Part shown: piece by piece, positions 4,226 to 62,324 of the stretch
Layout: each line of letters opens with the position of its first letter
Position numbering within the stretch: position 1 is the first letter of the stretch
The notes under the pieces: generated by a model
What the model saw: only the letters and a program-made list of their open reading frames with translations
Told to the model about the DNA's origin: nothing
Database searches by the model: none
Origin: Vitreimonas sp.
GTDB lineage: Bacteria > Patescibacteriota > Microgenomatia > UBA1400 > PJMF01
Assembly: GCA_035627515.1 (NCBI GenBank)
Contig: DASPLQ010000012.1
Location: 1,199,705 to 1,263,704 of the forward strand
Length of the DNA: 64,000 bases
Direction of reading: 5' to 3'
Translations under genes and position numbers: made by a program

Positions 4226-6619
4226 ATGACAAATCAATCTTCTTCACCTGTTCTTCAAGCTCCTCATTGGGTCGATAATGTAGTGGAAAATATCTTAAGT
4301 TGGCAAAAAACTAACCAAGTTGCCAAGCTCCACGTCGACGACATGAAAACTCCTTCTGGCAGGGTGCATACTGGCGCACTGCGCGGAGTCGTCCTTCATG
4401 ATTTAGTTGCCAAAGCCTTAGCAAACAAAGCTCAAGGCGTGGTCAGTACCTATGTCTTTAATGATATGGACGTGATGGATGGTTTACCAACATATTTAAA
4501 TAAAGATATTTATGAACAGCACATGGGCAAACCGCTCTATAAAATTCCCGTGCCAGCTTTAGAAGAGTGTGGCATCGATTTGAGCACGGCTTCAGCTGAA
4601 GAAATTGCCGAGCTGCGATCGGCTAAAAATTTTGCTGAGTTATATGCTATGGATTTTGTGCATGCTTTTAGACGCTTGGGCTGCTCACAACGGCTGGTGT
4701 GGAGTCATGAGTTATATGAAGCGGGTGAAATGGATGAACAGATTCGGACAGCTTTAAACAGTGTGGAAATTGCCCGTAAGATTTATCAAGAAGTAGCTGA
4801 CTACAAATTACCTGAAAAATGGTATCCCTTTCAAGTCATTTGTGAGAACTGTGGCAAGATGGGCACCACTCTGGTCACCGACTGGGATGGCGAACAAGTA
4901 ACCTATGAATGCCAACCAGCTAAGGTCACCTGGGCAGTTGGTTGCGGACATACTAGTAAAACCTTACCTTTTGGGGGTAAGGGCAAGTTACTATGGAAAA
5001 TGGACTGGCCAGCTCACTGGACGAAACTTGGTATTACGATTGAGGGTGCGGGTAAAGATCATACTTCGGCAGGTGGCTCGCGTGATATGGCTAATGCTAT
5101 TGTCACACAAATCTTTGATCAGATAGTCCCCTTCGATATTCCTTACGAGTGGATTTTGATCCGTGGCGCTAAAATGAGCTCAAGTAAAGGCGTCGGCACA
5201 TCTGCCCGAGAGTTTGTGGAACTTTTTCCGCCCCAAATTGGCCGCTTCTTATTTGTGAATAAAGATTATAACCAGGTCATAGATTTTGATCCTAAAACCA
5301 TGGCTATTCCAGATCTTTACGATGCCTATGATGCTGGCGCGCGTATCTTCTGGAAACAAGAAGAAGGCGATCAGCGCTTAGCTCGATCTTTTGAGTTGTC
5401 ACAATTAGAGACACTCCCAGAACCACATTTCTTGCCGCGCTTTAGAGACGTAGCAGTGTGGATGCAACACCCTGAAATTGAGCTCGAAACAAAGTGTGCA
5501 GAAATAAAGGGTAGTCCTTTGAATCAATTAGAAAAAGCGGTCTTAAAAGAGCGCATTCAATACGCTAAAGTGTGGTTGAGCCGCTACGCTCCAGAAGAAT
5601 ACCAACTAACGCCATCTGCAGCAGTTCCTGCCGCGGCTAGTTCTCTGACTCAAGAGCAGAGACTTTATTTAAGTGAAGCGGAGAGATTAATTACTTCCCA
5701 AGCTTGGCAACCTCAAGATTTGCAGCAAGCTTTGTTTGAGTTGGCAAAAAGCTCCTTGGGAGCTCGGCCCGCTTTTGAAGCAATTTACTTAGCCTTTTTA
5801 GGCAAAAAAGCAGGACCTAGAGCAGCCTGGTTTTTATTAGCCATGGATCCCGAGTTTCGTAAACAGCGCATTGAACTCCTGAGTGGAAACCAACCTATTC
5901 AAACACAATTCAAGTTTCCGACTTTGAATAACTCTGCACACTTCAGCTTTCACCCCGACTTCGCTGCCAAATATCCCACTGCAAGTGTCGGCATTGCCAT
6001 TATTCGGGGCGTAACTATTACTAAGAGTTTACCGGAACTTGAACAACACAAGGCTGAATTTATTCAAGAAATCAGTGGCTTAACCACTGACGCAATTAAT
6101 CAATATCCTGAAATTCAGGCTTATCGTCGCATGTACAAGTCAATGGGCATTGATTGGCACTCCCGTCGTCCTAGTCCTGAAGCATTACTGAGACGCGTTA
6201 CCCAGGGAAAGGGACTCTACACGGTCAACACCTGTGTTGATGCCTACAATTTAGTGGTCATGAAACATCGAATTTCAGTTGGTGCGTTTGATTTGAGTCA
6301 AGTTCAGTTTCCCACACAATTAAGAATTGCAGAAGGTGGTGAACAAATCTTATTACTCGGTGACACAGAATCAACTACTCTTAAAACTGGTGAAGTAAGT
6401 TACTTCGACCAACAAGGACCTTATAACCTCGACTATAACTACCGTGATGCTCAGCGAACCATGGTGACAGAAAAAACAACTGATTTATTAATTAACATTG
6501 ATGGTATTGATGAAGCCGATCGGAGTAGAGTGGAAGAGAGTTTAGCTGAAACTATAGAAATTATTCAGCGCTACTGTGGTGGTGAAGTAGAAATGGCCGG
6601 CATCGTCACCGCAGACTAA
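4226..6619 (+). CDS. lysS: lysine--tRNA ligase, class I type, with about 240-aa C-terminal B3/4-like (PheT-type tRNA-binding/editing fold) extension
   Basis: 797 aa. Class-I LysRS signatures PSGRVHTGALRG and KMSSSKG. Residues from about 560 onward resemble the B3/4 domain (NTCVDAYNLVVMKHRISVGAFDLSQV). Confidence 0.8.
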   Translation: MTNQSSSPVLQAPHWVDNVVENILSWQKTNQVAKLHVDDMKTPSGRVHTGALRGVVLHDLVAKALANKAQGVVSTYVFNDMDVMDGLPTYLNKDIYEQHMGKPLYKIPVPALEECGIDLSTASAEEIAELRSAKNFAELYAMDFVHAFRRLGCSQRLVWSHELYEAGEMDEQIRTALNSVEIARKIYQEVADYKLPEKWYPFQVICENCGKMGTTLVTDWDGEQVTYECQPAKVTWAVGCGHTSKTLPFGGKGKLLWKMDWPAHWTKLGITIEGAGKDHTSAGGSRDMANAIVTQIFDQIVPFDIPYEWILIRGAKMSSSKGVGTSAREFVELFPPQIGRFLFVNKDYNQVIDFDPKTMAIPDLYDAYDAGARIFWKQEEGDQRLARSFELSQLETLPEPHFLPRFRDVAVWMQHPEIELETKCAEIKGSPLNQLEKAVLKERIQYAKVWLSRYAPEEYQLTPSAAVPAAASSLTQEQRLYLSEAERLITSQAWQPQDLQQALFELAKSSLGARPAFEAIYLAFLGKKAGPRAAWFLLAMDPEFRKQRIELLSGNQPIQTQFKFPTLNNSAHFSFHPDFAAKYPTASVGIAIIRGVTITKSLPELEQHKAEFIQEISGLTTDAINQYPEIQAYRRMYKSMGIDWHSRRPSPEALLRRVTQGKGLYTVNTCVDAYNLVVMKHRISVGAFDLSQVQFPTQLRIAEGGEQILLLGDTESTTLKTGEVSYFDQQGPYNLDYNYRDAQRTMVTEKTTDLLINIDGIDEADRSRVEESLAETIEIIQRYCGGEVEMAGIVTAD

Positions 6620-7260: not shown

Positions 7261-7800
7261 ATGAGAAAAATGATTATTAGTTGTCTGATGCTGCTATTTG
7301 CGTTTGTAGTATCGGGCTCGTTTAATCAAGTTGAAGCTGCTGGCAACAGTTACAAAGGTAGTACTACCTATAAAAAAACTACTAAAGTAGCCCAAGCCAA
7401 ACGCTACACCAAAAAAGTCTCCTACAAAGCTCCTCGCAAAACAGCATATAAAGCTACCAAAGTCAGCGCAGCTGGTAAAAAAGCCCCTTATCACGCCCAT
7501 ATTCCCAGTGTCACTTATCGACATGTATCGATGAATAAACATATGCAAATTACGGCGGGTACCGATGGAAAAGTCTTGCTGACTTGGGATGATCGCGGTG
7601 GCACCTGTCATTTTGCCTATGGAACAGGTGGGGCAATGCAACATTCAACCTCAGCTGGGTGTGACGAAGCTCGCCATGTCATTGGCGGACTCCAACCTGG
7701 GGTCACCTATCACTTCAGCTTAACTCAAAATAGAGAACACTGGACACCAGCGGTCGCTGCGACTGCGACTAGTGGTCACATCGCTCAAATTCACATGTAG
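7261..7800 (+). CDS. secreted hypothetical protein, Lys/Tyr-rich repeats plus Ig/FN3-like C-terminal domain
   Basis: Signal peptide MRKMIISCLMLLFAFVVSGSFNQVEA. Repeated (S/T)YK(K/A) units. Strong RBS AAAGGAGAA upstream. Confidence 0.5.
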   Translation: MRKMIISCLMLLFAFVVSGSFNQVEAAGNSYKGSTTYKKTTKVAQAKRYTKKVSYKAPRKTAYKATKVSAAGKKAPYHAHIPSVTYRHVSMNKHMQITAGTDGKVLLTWDDRGGTCHFAYGTGGAMQHSTSAGCDEARHVIGGLQPGVTYHFSLTQNREHWTPAVAATATSGHIAQIHM

Positions 7801-7869
7801 TCACCGGGTAGATAGTAACTGCAGGCTCTCACCACGAGGTGGGAGCTTGTGGTTTATGACTATGGTATA

Positions 7870-8060
7870 CTGCATATAGACTAAAAAAGCGCTGGTGATT
7901 AGCACTCGCCATCTCAATACCATTGAGCGCTGATGGGGGAACATCCCATCCGGGTAAGCCCGTGATTGCAGGAATAAGCATATCGAGGTGGCACCGTTCC
8001 TAACCTCAGGAACCCTCTTATCTTCATCACACGTGTGGTGGGTATAAGAGGGTTTTTTTA
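7870..8060 (+). promoter_or_regulatory. putative T-box leader (tRNA-sensing attenuator) upstream of serS
   Basis: 280-nt untranslated leader. Extended -10 TGGTATACT near 7853. GAGGTGGCACCG (7985-7996) resembles the T-box core GGGTGGNACCG. Terminator CCCTCTTAT...ATAAGAGGG + T7 at 8014-8059 lies immediately before the serS RBS. Confidence 0.4.
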
Positions 8061-8080
8061 TGAGTTAACAAAGGAGACAC

Positions 8081-9349
8081 ATGCTTGATATTCAATACAT
8101 TCGCGACCATGCCGAGGAATTAAAGACCGCTATTAGTAATAAACAACTTAACCCTGAAGTGGTAGATCAGGTTTTGGCACATGATGAGCAACGCCGAGAG
8201 TTGATTGTCAAAGTAGAACACATTCGTCAGCAGATTAATGCTAATACTGAGTCCATCAAAACTTCCCCTACTCAACGGCCAACCCCTGAGCAAATTCAAT
8301 TAGGTAAGGAGCTGAAAGCTCAACTTCAAAATGTAGAACCAGAATTAAAAAGAGTAGAAGAAGCTCTTCGAGATTTGATGTCACAAGTCGCTAATCCTCC
8401 TGCTGGCGACGTACCTGTCGGCAAAGATGAGGATGACAATCAAGTCATCAAACAAGTCGGCACCTTACCAACTTTCGAGTTTGAACCCAAACCCCATCAT
8501 GAATTGATGGAAGCCTTGGACATGCTAGATACTAAACGAGCCACTCGGATTGGTGGCTTCCGAAGTTATTTCTTAAAAAATGATGGTTTACTGCTTGAAC
8601 AGGCGTTACTCCAATATGCTCTGCGATTTATGGTGGATCAGGGCTTTACGCCGATGGGTGTACCGATCATGGTCAATAAAGAAGCAATGTGGGGGACTGG
8701 GTACTTTCCTTGGGGTCAAGATGATCACTATAAAACCCAAGATGAGAGTATTTTGGCTGGCACTTCTGAAGTAGCTCTTACCGCCTATCATATGGGTGAA
8801 ACTTTGTCGGAAAAAGATCTGCCGGTTAAAATGGTGGGGATCTCACCATGCTTCCGCCGGGAGATTGGCTCATATGGTAAGGACACGCAGGGAATTATTC
8901 GTGTCCATCAGTTTAATAAGGTTGAGCAAGTAGTCTATACCATTGCCGATGAGGAAGAAACTCGTCGCTGGCACCAAACCATGGTGGGGTTTTCGGAAAA
9001 ACTCCTCACCGATTTGAAGCTCCCTTACCAAGTACTTTTGATGTGTACCGGTGATATGGGTGCCGGCCAGCGTAAAAAATATGATATCGAAACCTGGTTT
9101 CCATCACAACAAAAATACCGAGAAACGCACTCAGCCAGTTACTTCAATGACTTCCAAGCTCGTCGATTAAATATTCGTTACAAGGCTAAGGATGGGAGTA
9201 TGAAGTTTGTTTATACGTTAAATAACACGGTTGCTGCTACGCCGCGCTTGCTGGCTGCAATAATTGAAAATTATCAGCAAGCCGATGGCTCCATTCTAGT
9301 GCCGGAAGTTTTACAAGCGTATATGGGTAAGAGTGTAATTACTCGATAA
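8081..9349 (+). CDS. serS: serine--tRNA ligase
   Basis: 422 aa. Long N-terminal coiled coil. Class-II motifs (GISPCFRREIGSYGKDTQGIIRVHQFNKVE). Confidence 0.9.
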   Translation: MLDIQYIRDHAEELKTAISNKQLNPEVVDQVLAHDEQRRELIVKVEHIRQQINANTESIKTSPTQRPTPEQIQLGKELKAQLQNVEPELKRVEEALRDLMSQVANPPAGDVPVGKDEDDNQVIKQVGTLPTFEFEPKPHHELMEALDMLDTKRATRIGGFRSYFLKNDGLLLEQALLQYALRFMVDQGFTPMGVPIMVNKEAMWGTGYFPWGQDDHYKTQDESILAGTSEVALTAYHMGETLSEKDLPVKMVGISPCFRREIGSYGKDTQGIIRVHQFNKVEQVVYTIADEEETRRWHQTMVGFSEKLLTDLKLPYQVLLMCTGDMGAGQRKKYDIETWFPSQQKYRETHSASYFNDFQARRLNIRYKAKDGSMKFVYTLNNTVAATPRLLAAIIENYQQADGSILVPEVLQAYMGKSVITR

Positions 9350-26501: not shown

Positions 26502-26539
26502 CAACCTCTGTATAATATTTCTACAAGTTAAGTAAATGT

Positions 26540-26790
26540 CTTAAGAGCTCCCAACTCTTTTCTTAAATCATTTTAAGAGACAGAGAAGTAGACTTCGGAA
26601 TAATCATGGATAAACTTCTCCGGCACAGAGCCGTCATCTTCTCTGACACCAATGTCGTTTTTACAGAGTTGGTGAAAAAGTTCTGAGTTAGCAATAATTC
26701 AGAAAAAGCAAAGTGGTACCGCGTCACTACACGCCTTTGCATATCAATCAAACAGTGGTTTGGTGGATATGTAAGGGCGTTTTTTTATTG
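26540..26790 (+). promoter_or_regulatory. putative T-box leader upstream of Trbp111-proS operon
   Basis: AAAGTGGTACCGCG (26710-26723) matches the T-box core. Terminator ACGCCTTTGCATAT...ATATGTAAGGGCG + T7 at 26731-26786. Stem I-like helix CAGAGAAG/CTTCTCTG (26581-88 / 26638-45), then single-stranded ACACCAA. Confidence 0.55.
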
Positions 26791-26860: not shown

Positions 26861-27196
26861 ATGAACAAAATTACTATTGCTGATTTTGAAAATATTGACA
26901 TCCGGCTTGGCAAAATTGTGGCAGCTGAATTGCTACCTAATCCTCGTTATACCACACACAAACTAACCATCGATTTTGGTGATGAGTTAGGCAAGAAAAT
27001 CTCAGGGGCACGGTTAATCAACTATCAACCTAATGAACTAGTTGGCAAGCTTATGATAGGAGTTATTAATTTGCAGCCTCGTCAGATTGGTAAAATTATG
27101 TCGGAGGTCTTAACACTGGGAGTTGCGGATCATAAAGGTGACTTTGTGTTGTTATCGCCCCTCTCAGATGTTCCTCTTGGAGGTAAAGTCTGCTAA
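26861..27196 (+). CDS. tRNA-binding domain protein (Trbp111/CsaA/EMAP-like)
   Basis: 111 aa. DFENIDIRLGKIVAAELLPN... is an OB-fold tRNA-binding domain signature. Strong RBS AAGGAGATG. Confidence 0.7.
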   Translation: MNKITIADFENIDIRLGKIVAAELLPNPRYTTHKLTIDFGDELGKKISGARLINYQPNELVGKLMIGVINLQPRQIGKIMSEVLTLGVADHKGDFVLLSPLSDVPLGGKVC

Positions 27197-27241: not shown

Positions 27242-28687
27242 ATGGCAAAACAACAACTAACACCAAAGTCGCAAGACATGAGTAAGTGGTACACGCAAGT
27301 CATTCAACAAGCTAAACTAGCTGATTATTCTCCAGTTAAAGGCTGTATGGTCATGCGTCCCAGTGGCTACGGCATTTGGGAGAATATTCAAAAGACACTA
27401 GACCCTATGTTGAAAGAATTAGGTGTCGAAAATGCTTACTTCCCTTTATTTATTCCCATGTCTTTTTTAAGTCGCGAGGCAGATCACGTTGAAGGCTTTG
27501 CCCCTGAGCTTGCAGTGGTCACACATGGGGGTGGAGAAGAATTAGAAGAGAAATTAGTGGTTAGACCCACATCTGAAACTATCATGTACGAAATGTACAG
27601 TAAATGGGTTCAATCACATCGAGACTTACCTTTGAACCTCAACCAGTGGAATAACGTGGTCCGCTGGGAGAAACGAACCTATTTTTTCTTAAGAACTACC
27701 GAGTTTTTATGGCAAGAAGCTCACACCGCTCATGCCACTCATGAAGAAGAATTTGAGATGGTTCTAAATGCCTTGGAAAAATATCGGACACTGGTCGAGG
27801 ATAACCTAGCTATTCCCGTAGTCAAAGGTCGCAAAAGTACTGCTGAGAAATTTGCTGGGGCTGATTTAACCACAACTATAGAAGCTATGATGCCTGATGG
27901 CAAAGCCTTGCAAGCTGGAACCAGCCACGACCTAGGTCAAAACTTCTCTAAGAAAGAAGCCTTTAATATCTCATTCCTGAATGCTGAAGGCAAAACTGAT
28001 TATGCTTGGCAAACCAGTTATGGCTTATCAACTCGGGTCATCGGGGCATTAATCATGACTCATGGCGATGATGATGGCTTAGTCATTCCTCCCCGCATTG
28101 CTCCAACACAAGTAATGATCGTTCCTGCCCAATCTACTCCTGAATTATTGGGAGAGGCAGTAAAGATTCAAAAACAGTTAAAAGCACAAAATATTCGTGC
28201 GAAAGTTGATACAGACATAGAACATAGTATGGGTTGGAAACTCAATGATGCTGAAATTCAAGGAATTCCAGTCACATTAATCGTTGGTCAGCGTGAATTA
28301 GACGAGGGCAGCTTAACTGCTAATATTCGCTATTCTAAACAAAAACAAAAAATTAACTTGCAAACTGTTACTAAAGATCTTGATGCTTTACTAGAAACTA
28401 TTCAAACCGAAATGTTTGCACAAGCTCAAAAAAGAACTCAGGCACTAACCACTGAAGTGAATTCATTTGATGAGTTCAAGAACGTTATGGAGACCAAGCG
28501 TGGGTTCTTGAAAGCTTTATGGTGTGAAGATGCTGTTTGCGAAAAAGCTATCAAAGAAGAAACCAAAGCTAGTACTCGCTGCTTACCGTTCATTGATGAC
28601 AAAGGTAATGTCAAAGAAGAAACAGGAGTTTGTGTAAAATGTGGCGCAGCTGCAAATCATCGTTGGTTATTTGCACAATCATACTAA
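27242..28687 (+). CDS. proS: proline--tRNA ligase, archaeal/eukaryotic type
   Basis: 481 aa. Class IIa catalytic core. C-terminal zinc-binding domain ending ...CVKCGAAANHRWLFAQSY with C-terminal Tyr. Confidence 0.85.
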   Translation: MAKQQLTPKSQDMSKWYTQVIQQAKLADYSPVKGCMVMRPSGYGIWENIQKTLDPMLKELGVENAYFPLFIPMSFLSREADHVEGFAPELAVVTHGGGEELEEKLVVRPTSETIMYEMYSKWVQSHRDLPLNLNQWNNVVRWEKRTYFFLRTTEFLWQEAHTAHATHEEEFEMVLNALEKYRTLVEDNLAIPVVKGRKSTAEKFAGADLTTTIEAMMPDGKALQAGTSHDLGQNFSKKEAFNISFLNAEGKTDYAWQTSYGLSTRVIGALIMTHGDDDGLVIPPRIAPTQVMIVPAQSTPELLGEAVKIQKQLKAQNIRAKVDTDIEHSMGWKLNDAEIQGIPVTLIVGQRELDEGSLTANIRYSKQKQKINLQTVTKDLDALLETIQTEMFAQAQKRTQALTTEVNSFDEFKNVMETKRGFLKALWCEDAVCEKAIKEETKASTRCLPFIDDKGNVKEETGVCVKCGAAANHRWLFAQSY

Positions 28688-61832: not shown

Positions 61833-62324
61833 TTAGTCATTCAGCCATTCCACATATGTACAACCCGTCGGCTGGCGGAACTCGCGGTCCCACCCGGCTG
61901 TGGAACATTTCTTCATCTTTTTACCTTTGTTAGTGGTAAATAAGACCAGTTTTTCACCACATTGCGGACACTCTTCATCCAGTTGTTCAGTAGTATTACT
62001 CAGCCACTCCACATAATCACAACCCGTAGCCACCATATTTTCTCGGTCCCAACCACCAGTACTACATTTTTTCATTTTCTTTCCGGTGCGGGTGACTTGA
62101 AGTTGCAGTGGCGAACCACATTTAGGACACTTCTCATCTAAGGTTTGTGGTTCATCTTTGAGCCATTTTACGTAGGTACAGCCTTCCACCTGATGTGTCT
62201 CACTATTCCAGGAGCCTTTAGAACACCGCTGGAGCTTTTTACCAGTTTTAGTTTCTTCAGGTGGGTTGAGGGGAGCGCCACATTGTGGACAAAGGTCTGT
62301 AAGTGAAGGTGAAGAATTTGACAT
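61833..62324 (-). CDS. tandem triple zinc-ribbon protein (three C-x2-C...C...GC modules)
   Basis: 163 aa. Three about 50-aa repeats CP(Q/K)CG..L...TGKK(L/M)(Q/K)(R/K)CS.G.W......GC.YV(K/E)WL, each with 4 Cys. Confidence 0.5.
   Translation of the reverse strand: MSNSSPSLTDLCPQCGAPLNPPEETKTGKKLQRCSKGSWNSETHQVEGCTYVKWLKDEPQTLDEKCPKCGSPLQLQVTRTGKKMKKCSTGGWDRENMVATGCDYVEWLSNTTEQLDEECPQCGEKLVLFTTNKGKKMKKCSTAGWDREFRQPTGCTYVEWLND

Follow-up and report, generated by a model that had tools for sequence, protein, structure and literature searches.

The serS leader in the window analysed here, that is, the whole stretch of 64,000 nucleotides (nt) of contig DASPLQ010000012.1, would act, with a probability that we put at roughly 0.88, as a T-box riboswitch that responds to tRNA-Ser and regulates serS by attenuating its transcription. 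The element is a variant of the T-box, a minimal form with the specifier codon in a terminal loop, an ultrashort Stem I, no elbow platform, and a terminator. The initial annotation had taken the region for a T-box that senses the charging of tRNA-Ser and attenuates serS, a view that the comparative evidence supports in substance, although the architecture is not the canonical one. As judged from sequence comparison, the leader is more than a chance resemblance, and it is conservation that decides the matter. The gene in question is an open reading frame (ORF) at 8081-9349 on the plus strand, which contains the Pfam domains Seryl_tRNA_N and tRNA-synt_2b (the class II core) and is named by NCBIfam TIGR00414, the serS equivalog, with 447 bits. 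Relatives of its product, seryl-tRNA synthetase (SerRS), in the genome collection all belong to Patescibacteria (the Candidate Phyla Radiation, CPR), mostly to Microgenomates, among them Pacebacteria, Woesebacteria, Collierbacteria, Levybacteria, and Gottesmanbacteria, and are 46-75% identical to the window protein; the source organism is a Microgenomates/Patescibacteria bacterium.

The 188-nt leader is far more stable than its shuffled versions (z = -4.4, with 0 of 200 shuffles as stable), and its centroid fold already contains the helices of the proposed structure. Blind minimum free energy (MFE) folding of the 85 nt upstream of the conserved Stem IIA/F-box block gave for each leader a base helix (P1), a hairpin of 5-6 base pairs (bp) with a 7-nt loop, in some leaders another small hairpin, then a short Stem II and the CGGG-UAAG-CCCG hairpin. 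The parts of this decoding module in the window copy are as follows.

7888-7931, plus strand: Stem I domain, a three-way junction in the blind MFE and centroid folds, in which P1 and the specifier stem covary among 21 leaders
7888-7892 / 7927-7931, plus strand: P1, AGCGC / GCGCU, the base helix of Stem I
7893-7898 / 7906-7911, plus strand: stem of the specifier hairpin, UGGUGA / UCGCCA, 6 bp in the MFE fold
7899-7905, plus strand: specifier loop UUAGCAC, with the Ser codon AGC at 7901-7903 and the conserved purine A7904 next to it
7914-7918 / 7922-7926, plus strand: extra hairpin P1b, UCAAU / AUUGA, in the MFE fold
7932-7938 / 7944-7950, plus strand: Stem II, GAUGGGG / UCCCAUC with the loop GAACA, a fully paired 7-bp hairpin in the MFE fold, with no S-turn
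7951-7954 / 7959-7962, plus strand: Stem IIA, CGGG / CCCG with the loop UAAG
7959-7965, plus strand: F-box-like CCCGUGA, compared with the F-box consensus CCGUCA
7968-7972 and 7976-7978, plus strand: linker elements GCAGG and AAG, both conserved, the latter resembling the "RAG" motif

The F-box consensus and the RAG motif are those described in PMC7583486 and PMC11297988. The initial annotation had proposed that a self-complementary helix with GGTGA on its 5' side could be Stem I; the AGCGCT copies at 7888-7893 and 7926-7931 do form the base helix, while the GGTGA at 7894-7898 is no distal-loop motif but the 5' strand of the 6-bp specifier hairpin. The block of IIA and linker (7951-7978) is the most conserved one, with 13 invariant columns in an alignment of 21 leaders, and the residues of a possible IIB pairing between the loop GC and the linker GC are invariant across the leaders. 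Several parts of the classical T-box are lacking from the window copy: there is no K-turn (GA motif) with a UGA...GA internal loop, which most relatives have, in a K-turn-like form, at the place of P1b, and a three-way junction stands there instead; no long Stem I with an AG bulge and a distal-loop platform, the specifier being in a 7-nt terminal loop; and neither an S-turn Stem II nor a Stem III. The lack of Stem III follows from the spacing of just 6 nt between the linker AAG and the antiterminator helix A1, and a Stem III-like insert was found in the relatives L008, L015, L049, and L145. A pseudoknot between the Stem II loop and the linker, for which complementarity was visible by eye in L002, L033, and L008, was rejected as inconsistent over the 21 leaders. 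The idea that the loss of the S-turn of Stem II adapted the leader to the long variable arm of tRNA-Ser is weakened because leaders of argS and trpS (L151, L170, and L135) also have plain Stem II hairpins.

Within the window itself, the evidence for the T-box motif is weak, as GGTGGNACCG occurs twice against 0.15 expected. The second exact match (GGTGGGACCG), at 61885-61894 on the minus strand and inside the ORF 61833-62324 of that strand, lacks a T-box context and has probably arisen by chance. Conservation among related genomes tells far more. Of 79 loci, 14 have GGTGG[CT]ACC upstream of serS, in most cases with a T-run that follows 45-60 nt later, and a second, more conserved block, CGGGTAAGCCCGT-NNNN-GCNGG, accompanies it in 13 of those 14 loci and is also present in two loci with variant T-box motifs (L022 and L047), once per locus and always on the serS strand. 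The same order of modules precedes serS in 16-17 of 80 related genomes. For covariation we aligned 21 serS-type sensing domains, of which one is that of the window, 15 come from genome loci, and 5 from metagenome loci. In this alignment, 95.6% of the cells of the four proposed helices hold a pair; sliding the 3' partners by 1-3 columns lowers the figure to 28-46%. Both sides have changed in 14 of the 19 pairs (84 cells), the covariation score reaches 0.58 (slid controls, 0.07-0.13), and none of 500 shuffles reached any of the observed pairing or covariation measures. Compensatory changes are seen in all five pairs of the specifier stem and in all six pairs tested in Stem II (96% of cells paired), while IIA is nearly invariant with one compensatory U-A case. 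A covariance model dedicated to serS-type leaders has a single match in the window (68.9 bits), and over the 80 genome loci it recovered all 15 training leaders that came from these loci plus a weak new match in L055.

The helices of the antiterminator (A1 and A2) follow the same pattern. A2 was located independently of A1 by a contiguous-helix rule, and in 16 of 21 leaders it is directly followed by a perfect 4/4 complement of the 5' strand of A1; in the other five the rule misplaces A2, and the A1 pairing is visible there by eye. The slide control discriminates only weakly for A1 (87% paired against 64-77% at shifts of 1-2 in either direction) because its 3' strand is rich in C and U, and the argument rests instead on the compensatory variants GAGG/CCUC, AAGG/CCUU, CAGG/CCUG, ACGG/CUGU, and AAAG/CUUU.

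These data also bear on the thought that the leader is a decayed or constitutive relic, a structured 5' untranslated region that has given up tRNA sensing and whose terminator merely damps serS. Such a relic would account for the disappearance of the K-turn, distal Stem I, S-turn, and Stem III, for the silence of the Rfam T-box model RF00230 on the leader, for the altered bulge UGGCAUC in two relatives (L022 and L047), and for the fact that most related serS genes lack a leader of this kind. However, nothing is missing from the contact elements of the window copy: AGC-A and the UGGCACC bulge are there, A1 and A2 pair perfectly, and the terminator overlaps the antiterminator. The helices have been kept by compensatory changes across lineages whose SerRS is only 47-75% identical to that of the window, and the loop alternates solely between two unrelated Ser codon boxes. 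Compensatory changes together with a codon switch restricted to Ser indicate purifying selection on function, and we therefore regard a relic as very unlikely. As for L022 and L047, which have UGGCAUC where UGGCACC is expected, they may be variant or decaying copies.

The serine specifier with a following purine that the initial annotation had suggested looking for in relatives had not been located there; in the window it is found in a hairpin loop. In the alignment, the triplet of columns 29-31 is AGC or UCC in each of the 19 well-aligned serS leaders, with A next in 15 of them, and no amino acid other than Ser has a codon in every serS-leader loop. AGC and UCC come from unrelated codon boxes, and a switch between them therefore preserves meaning, not sequence. 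The predicted partner of the AGC of the window is the GCU anticodon of tRNA-Ser. At L033 (611-708), two successive hairpins with UCCAA loops, CCGG-CCUCCAA-CCGG and GUGA-AUCCAAC-UCAC, were observed.

The family is wider than serS. A metagenome collection was scanned with the core CGGGTAWGCCCGTNNNNGCNGG alone, a pattern that is blind to both the downstream gene and the loop, and 32 of the 119 matches had a T-box motif within 200 nt downstream; only about 8 of these stand before serS. The others precede ileS, aspS, a non-discriminating aspS type, valS, argS, trpS, or genes for a CsaA-like tRNA-binding protein and a BshB-like deacetylase (named by NCBIfam), with the following loops.

Loop AUC: before ileS
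Loop GAC: before aspS
Loop GUC: before valS
Loop CGC: before argS
Loop UGG: before trpS (L135)
Loop AAC (Asn): before a gene of the non-discriminating AspRS type, L187, about 824-1010
Loop CCG, with the bulge UGGU: before the ORF of a CsaA-like tRNA-binding protein, L108
Loop UGC (Cys), with the bulge UGGA: before a BshB-like deacetylase of a thiol pathway, L104, about 834-960
Loop UCC (Ser): L090, 2961-3739, a PspA-like phosphoserine phosphatase that precedes serS

The cognate codon is present in 23 of the 24 loops obtained by blind MFE folding, and when the labels that match loops to genes were permuted, the mean was 14.9, the maximum 21, and none of 20,000 permutations reached 23. The codons of the family are almost all of the form NNC, which fits the "C-rule" of T-boxes, and UCC and AGC are both known Ser specifiers (PMC7778990). 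Members with specificities other than Ser carry S-turn-like Stem II motifs, GAAGAA...AGUAGA. In the trpS leaders L173 (about 1231-1360) and L186, the loop read in the register of the family gives CGU followed by A (Arg) and contains no UGG; UGG followed by A is found in the next hairpin, GACC-CUGGAGCC-GGUC.

ThrRS autoregulates its synthesis at the thrS operator of Escherichia coli, and one might imagine by analogy that SerRS or another protein binds a tRNA-like hairpin of the leader, its likeness to a T-box being a coincidence. The specifier hairpin does resemble an anticodon arm, with a stem of 5-6 bp, a 7-nt loop, and a purine after the triplet, but the loop holds the codons AGC and UCC and not the anticodons GCU or GGA, and it is established that SerRS does not read the anticodon. 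The same scaffold stands before six other aminoacyl-tRNA synthetase (aaRS) genes, each time with its own cognate codon; the UGGN of the bulge tracks the gene, being UGGC before serS, UGGU in L108 with its CCG loop as well as in the leader of the proS operon in the window, and UGGA together with the Cys codon; and RF00230 detects homology in relatives. Of all the explanations considered, protein binding is the one that we find least credible.

The output side of the proposed riboswitch consists of two alternative structures and the start region of serS.

7985-8017, plus strand: antiterminator, GAGG-[UGGCACC]-GUUCC...GGAAC-CCUC, -8.9 kcal/mol
7985-7988 / 8014-8017, plus strand: A1, GAGG / CCUC, whose 3' strand also starts the terminator
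7989-7995, plus strand: T-box bulge UGGCACC, 7 nt, lying between A1 and A2
7996-8000 / 8009-8013, plus strand: A2, GUUCC / GGAAC
8013-8021 / 8044-8052, plus strand: outer helix of the intrinsic terminator, CCCTCTTAT / ATAAGAGGG (as RNA CCCUCUUAU / AUAAGAGGG)
8023-8030 / 8035-8042, plus strand: inner helix of the terminator, with the loop ACGU; a run of seven U (U7) follows at 8053-8059, and the whole terminator spans 8013-8059, -22.9 kcal/mol
8070-8076, plus strand: Shine-Dalgarno (SD) sequence AAAGGAG, 3' of the terminator and outside the hairpin; the regulated serS follows at 8081-9349

The motif GAGGTGGCACCG at 7985-7996, noted in the initial annotation as similar to the T-box core, is present, and the UGGC that had been predicted to meet a GCCA end is the first part of the 7-nt bulge between A1 and A2. 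The terminator that had been placed before the ribosome-binding site is likewise there, with U7 reaching 8059, although it begins at 8013 and not at 8014. The bases 8013-8017 are common to the antiterminator and the much more stable terminator, which makes the two structures mutually exclusive. The main terminator was not seen in a consensus terminator scan, which flagged just the A2 hairpin, because its stem is too long or interrupted for the rule of the scan. Among the 43 family members, 39 have a stable hairpin (median -18.7 kcal/mol) that leads straight into a U-run and whose 5' arm starts within the antiterminator; the remaining four have longer or weaker versions of the hairpin, as judged by eye. 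Two layouts of the terminator exist: either the 5' arm is the 3' strand of A1, as in the window, or a 3' arm GCGUGG-U6 pairs onto the CCACGC of the T-box, and either layout competes with the antiterminator.

UGGC is complementary to a GCCA 3' end with G73 as the discriminator base. G73 is the discriminator of bacterial tRNA-Ser. A search for tRNA-Ser genes found none within the window, none in 60 related loci, and two solely in the family-bearing contig L130, tRNA-Ser(GCU) and tRNA-Ser(UGA), both of which end in G-CCA and match UGGC.

The terminator is also what speaks on whether the leader might be a translational T-box, in which the bound tRNA would release the ribosome-binding site from a sequestrator as in actinobacterial ileS. 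In the literature examined, the combination of an ultrashort Stem I, a terminal specifier loop, and IIA/F-box is described only for translational T-boxes (PMC7583486, PMC7778990, PMC11297988), and to that extent the architecture of the window copy would suit such a mode. The alternative helix is, however, a 17-bp hairpin of -22.9 kcal/mol that runs directly into U7; the SD lies 11 nt past the U-run in neither alternative structure, and we thus see no SD sequestration here; and, as stated above, a hairpin with a U-run ends 39 of the 43 family members. We accordingly give translational control only a slim chance.

The intergenic gap before serS (7801-8080) measures 280 nt, the length that the initial annotation had assigned to the leader, whereas the leader itself has about 200 nt (about 7878-8080) when counted from the likely start some 7 nt past the -10 element. 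The extended -10 element reported there was found as TGGTATACT on the plus strand at 7863-7871, consisting of TG at 7863-7864 and the hexamer TATACT at 7866-7871; this putative promoter has a weak -35, which is why the consensus promoter scan left the site 7863-7871 unflagged. The transcript probably starts near 7878, as suggested by the position of this element. Among the 21 homologous serS-type leaders, 17 have a -10-like hexamer 8-20 nt before P1, and the TG extension occurs in 12 of those 17; in the window the -10 element ends 16 nt upstream of P1. A -10 element so near to P1, in the window as well as in relatives, implies that the transcript begins just upstream of P1 and leaves no place for a hidden long Stem I. 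Right after the stop codon of the ORF 7261-7800 there is a hairpin, GGCUCUCACC-ACGA-GGUGGGAGCU at 7824-7847 on the plus strand, with a U-rich tract behind it. This hairpin probably terminates the upstream gene, and serS would therefore be a separate transcription unit.

The relation of the family to known T-boxes was examined with Rfam. At gathering thresholds, cmscan of the whole window reported only two tRNAs. At E ≤ 10, the region 7750-8120 gave matches to Srn266, the eL15 leader, and sR20, which lie on the wrong strand and were rejected as chance. The search with RF00230 that the initial annotation had recommended thus failed on the serS leader, and under the rule given there for discarding the T-box this failure alone would have wrongly killed the finding. 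The gathering score of RF00230 is 93 bits, and a permissive cmscan run on ten family loci nevertheless gave 50.2 bits (E = 1e-8) for the serS-type leader L049, 45.6 bits for the ileS leader L114, 37.0 bits (E = 3e-5) for L001, the closest relative of the window, and 31.6 bits for the argS leader L170, while RF00230 gave nothing on L002, L008, L020, L059, L145, and L111. The alignments match the K-turn base of Stem I (AUUuGAGACAG...CUGUCGAG), Stem II, IIA with CGUUA, Stem III, and the T-box with A2. RF00230 aligns the K-turn base in L049, and the hairpin of that leader to Stem II; IIA with CGUUA is aligned in both L049 and L001. In Stem I, 76 model positions are replaced by 7 nt (L049) or 65 by 17 nt (L001). 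On these alignments, the family is best described as a lineage of T-boxes that has lost all of the upper Stem I, including its internal specifier loop, AG bulge, and distal loop, and whose specifier has moved to a terminal loop. That the window copy scores nothing is explained by the replacement of its K-turn by a three-way junction, its plain Stem II, and its lack of Stem III.

Several observations weigh against a tRNA-Ser-responsive attenuator. RF00230 has no match on 7750-8120 even at E ≤ 10, and no family member reaches its gathering score. Missing from the window copy are the K-turn of Stem I, the elbow platform together with the rest of the upper Stem I, a Stem II with an S-turn, and Stem III; because reviews call the elbow platform essential for transcriptional T-boxes (PMC7583486), the function of a minimal form is not guaranteed. 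The leader is present at only about one in five related serS loci. The sole mismatch between loop and gene in the family is that of the trpS leaders L173/L186, with the loop AGCGUAA. Lastly, no tRNA-Ser(GCU) gene of this genome itself was found in the window.

If the leader is nevertheless a transcriptional T-box, as we favor, its action might be pictured as follows. Transcription would start a few bases past the -10 element, and the nascent leader would fold into a compact decoding module composed of the short Stem I with AGC-A in its 7-nt loop, the plain Stem II, and IIA/F-box with the linker. The GCU anticodon of tRNA-Ser would then pair with AGC. If that tRNA is uncharged, its 3' GCCA would pair with the UGGC of the bulge and stabilize the weak antiterminator, allowing readthrough into serS. 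With a charged tRNA, or with none, the more stable terminator would take 8013-8017 and stop transcription about 21 nt before the start codon. The binding of tRNA and the discrimination between its charged and uncharged forms are assumed here from the established T-box mechanism, and decoding during transcription would have to proceed without the elbow platform of a long Stem I.

The window contains a second leader of this kind, on which the initial annotation was right: the leader of the proS operon (26511-26790) matches RF00230 with 35.7 bits and E = 1.7e-6, below the gathering score, and has a UGGUACC bulge and a terminator with U7. Its putative specifier hairpin, AAGAG-CUCCCAA-CUCUU at 26543-26559, presents CCC (Pro) followed by A; the hairpin is weakly supported, as it is present in a local fold (-2.6 kcal/mol) and absent from the global MFE structure. 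The proS-operon leader appears to be of the same short-specifier type as that of serS. The first gene behind it, ORF 26861-27196, encodes a CsaA/Trbp111-like tRNA-binding protein and is followed by proS (27242-28687); a CsaA/Trbp111-like gene also stands behind the family leader with the CCG loop in L108. Another tRNA-related gene of the window, at 4226-6619 on the plus strand, encodes a 797-amino acid protein that is an unusual fusion of a class I lysyl-tRNA synthetase domain (PF01921) and a C-terminal B3_4 domain (PF03483, the Pfam B3/4 domain).

One possibility, for which we see about even odds, is that the serS leader belongs to a widespread and so far undescribed minimal T-box class in Patescibacteria and perhaps other phyla, which would combine a "class II" decoding module (ultrashort Stem I, 7-nt terminal specifier loop, no elbow contact) with a "class I" terminator platform and cover at least seven amino acid specificities. 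The serS form would then rank among the smallest natural T-boxes; its sensing domain takes up about 95 nt and contains neither an S-turn nor a Stem III, and its ligand would be a tRNA with a long variable arm. The GC-rich metagenome contigs L088 and L105 share the IIA/F-box core and also have a T-box bulge and hairpins that resemble terminators, in L088 before a ValRS-like start, and on their account the short-Stem-I terminator class may reach beyond CPR. The class I set of the T-box database TBDB was drawn from RF00230, and the short-Stem-I class II model was searched only in Actinobacteria (PMC7778990). Our literature search turned up no paper linking T-boxes with CPR/Patescibacteria, though there may be an earlier description. 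Pipelines based on RF00230 miss these leaders, and T-box regulation is therefore probably under-annotated in CPR genomes, whose regulators are few.

In the field, the long Stem I of transcriptional T-boxes is given a kinetic role, elbow docking being thought to speed up the capture of tRNA before the terminator is reached (PMC7583486, PMC11297988), and a short Stem I is taken to mark translational T-boxes (PMC7583486; repeated in 2024 in PMC11297988). An ultrashort Stem I combined with strong terminators across many aaRS genes is a direct test case for this kinetic idea. If these elements work co-transcriptionally, elbow docking would not be a general requirement for transcriptional T-boxes; slow or paused CPR polymerases, compensating contacts, or an elbow requirement weaker than has been assumed might explain this. 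For engineering, too, a compact tRNA sensor that takes up about 170 nt and whose codon loops can be swapped would be an attractive part.

The family shares with canonical T-boxes (RF00230) the cognate specifier codon followed by a purine, the 7-nt UGGNACC bulge between A1 and A2 whose N corresponds to the tRNA discriminator, the antiterminator that competes with an intrinsic terminator, the Stem IIA/F-box element (CCGUNA; here CGGG-UAAG-CCCG-UGA, 7951-7965), and the preference for NNC codons, and its relatives align to them domain by domain. In contrast, the internal specifier loop with S-turn, the AG bulge, and the elbow-docking distal platform of the canonical form are missing from the family (65-76 positions lost), and the K-turn, S-turn Stem II, and Stem III are absent from the window copy. 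Further differences are that the window copy scores 0 bits against RF00230 and relatives 31-50 bits, and that the host here belongs to CPR. The translational T-box of actinobacterial ileS, with structures from Mycobacterium tuberculosis and Nocardia farcinica, also has an ultrashort Stem I and is the "class II" of TBDB (Sherwood et al. 2015, to the extent that it is cited in PMC7583486). It shares with the present leaders the ultrashort Stem I without an elbow platform, the F-box and the RAG-like linker, and the specifier placed beside a module of Stem II and a IIA/B pseudoknot, putative in the leaders here, that would compensate for the missing elbow contact; with the non-Ser members it further shares S-turn-like Stem II motifs, whereas serS leaders have just a plain Stem II. 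The ileS element sequesters the SD, while the leader here uses an intrinsic terminator, and the family occurs outside Actinobacteria and serves serS, aspS, valS, argS, trpS, and the proS operon besides ileS. T-boxes of the glyQS type are transcriptional, as the serS leader would be, and have likewise lost whole peripheral domains while keeping the core of specifier and discriminator. The choice of what was lost is, however, opposite in the two: glyQS keeps the long Stem I with its elbow platform and drops Stem II and IIA/B, while the serS leader has lost the long Stem I and keeps IIA/B (PMC7583486).

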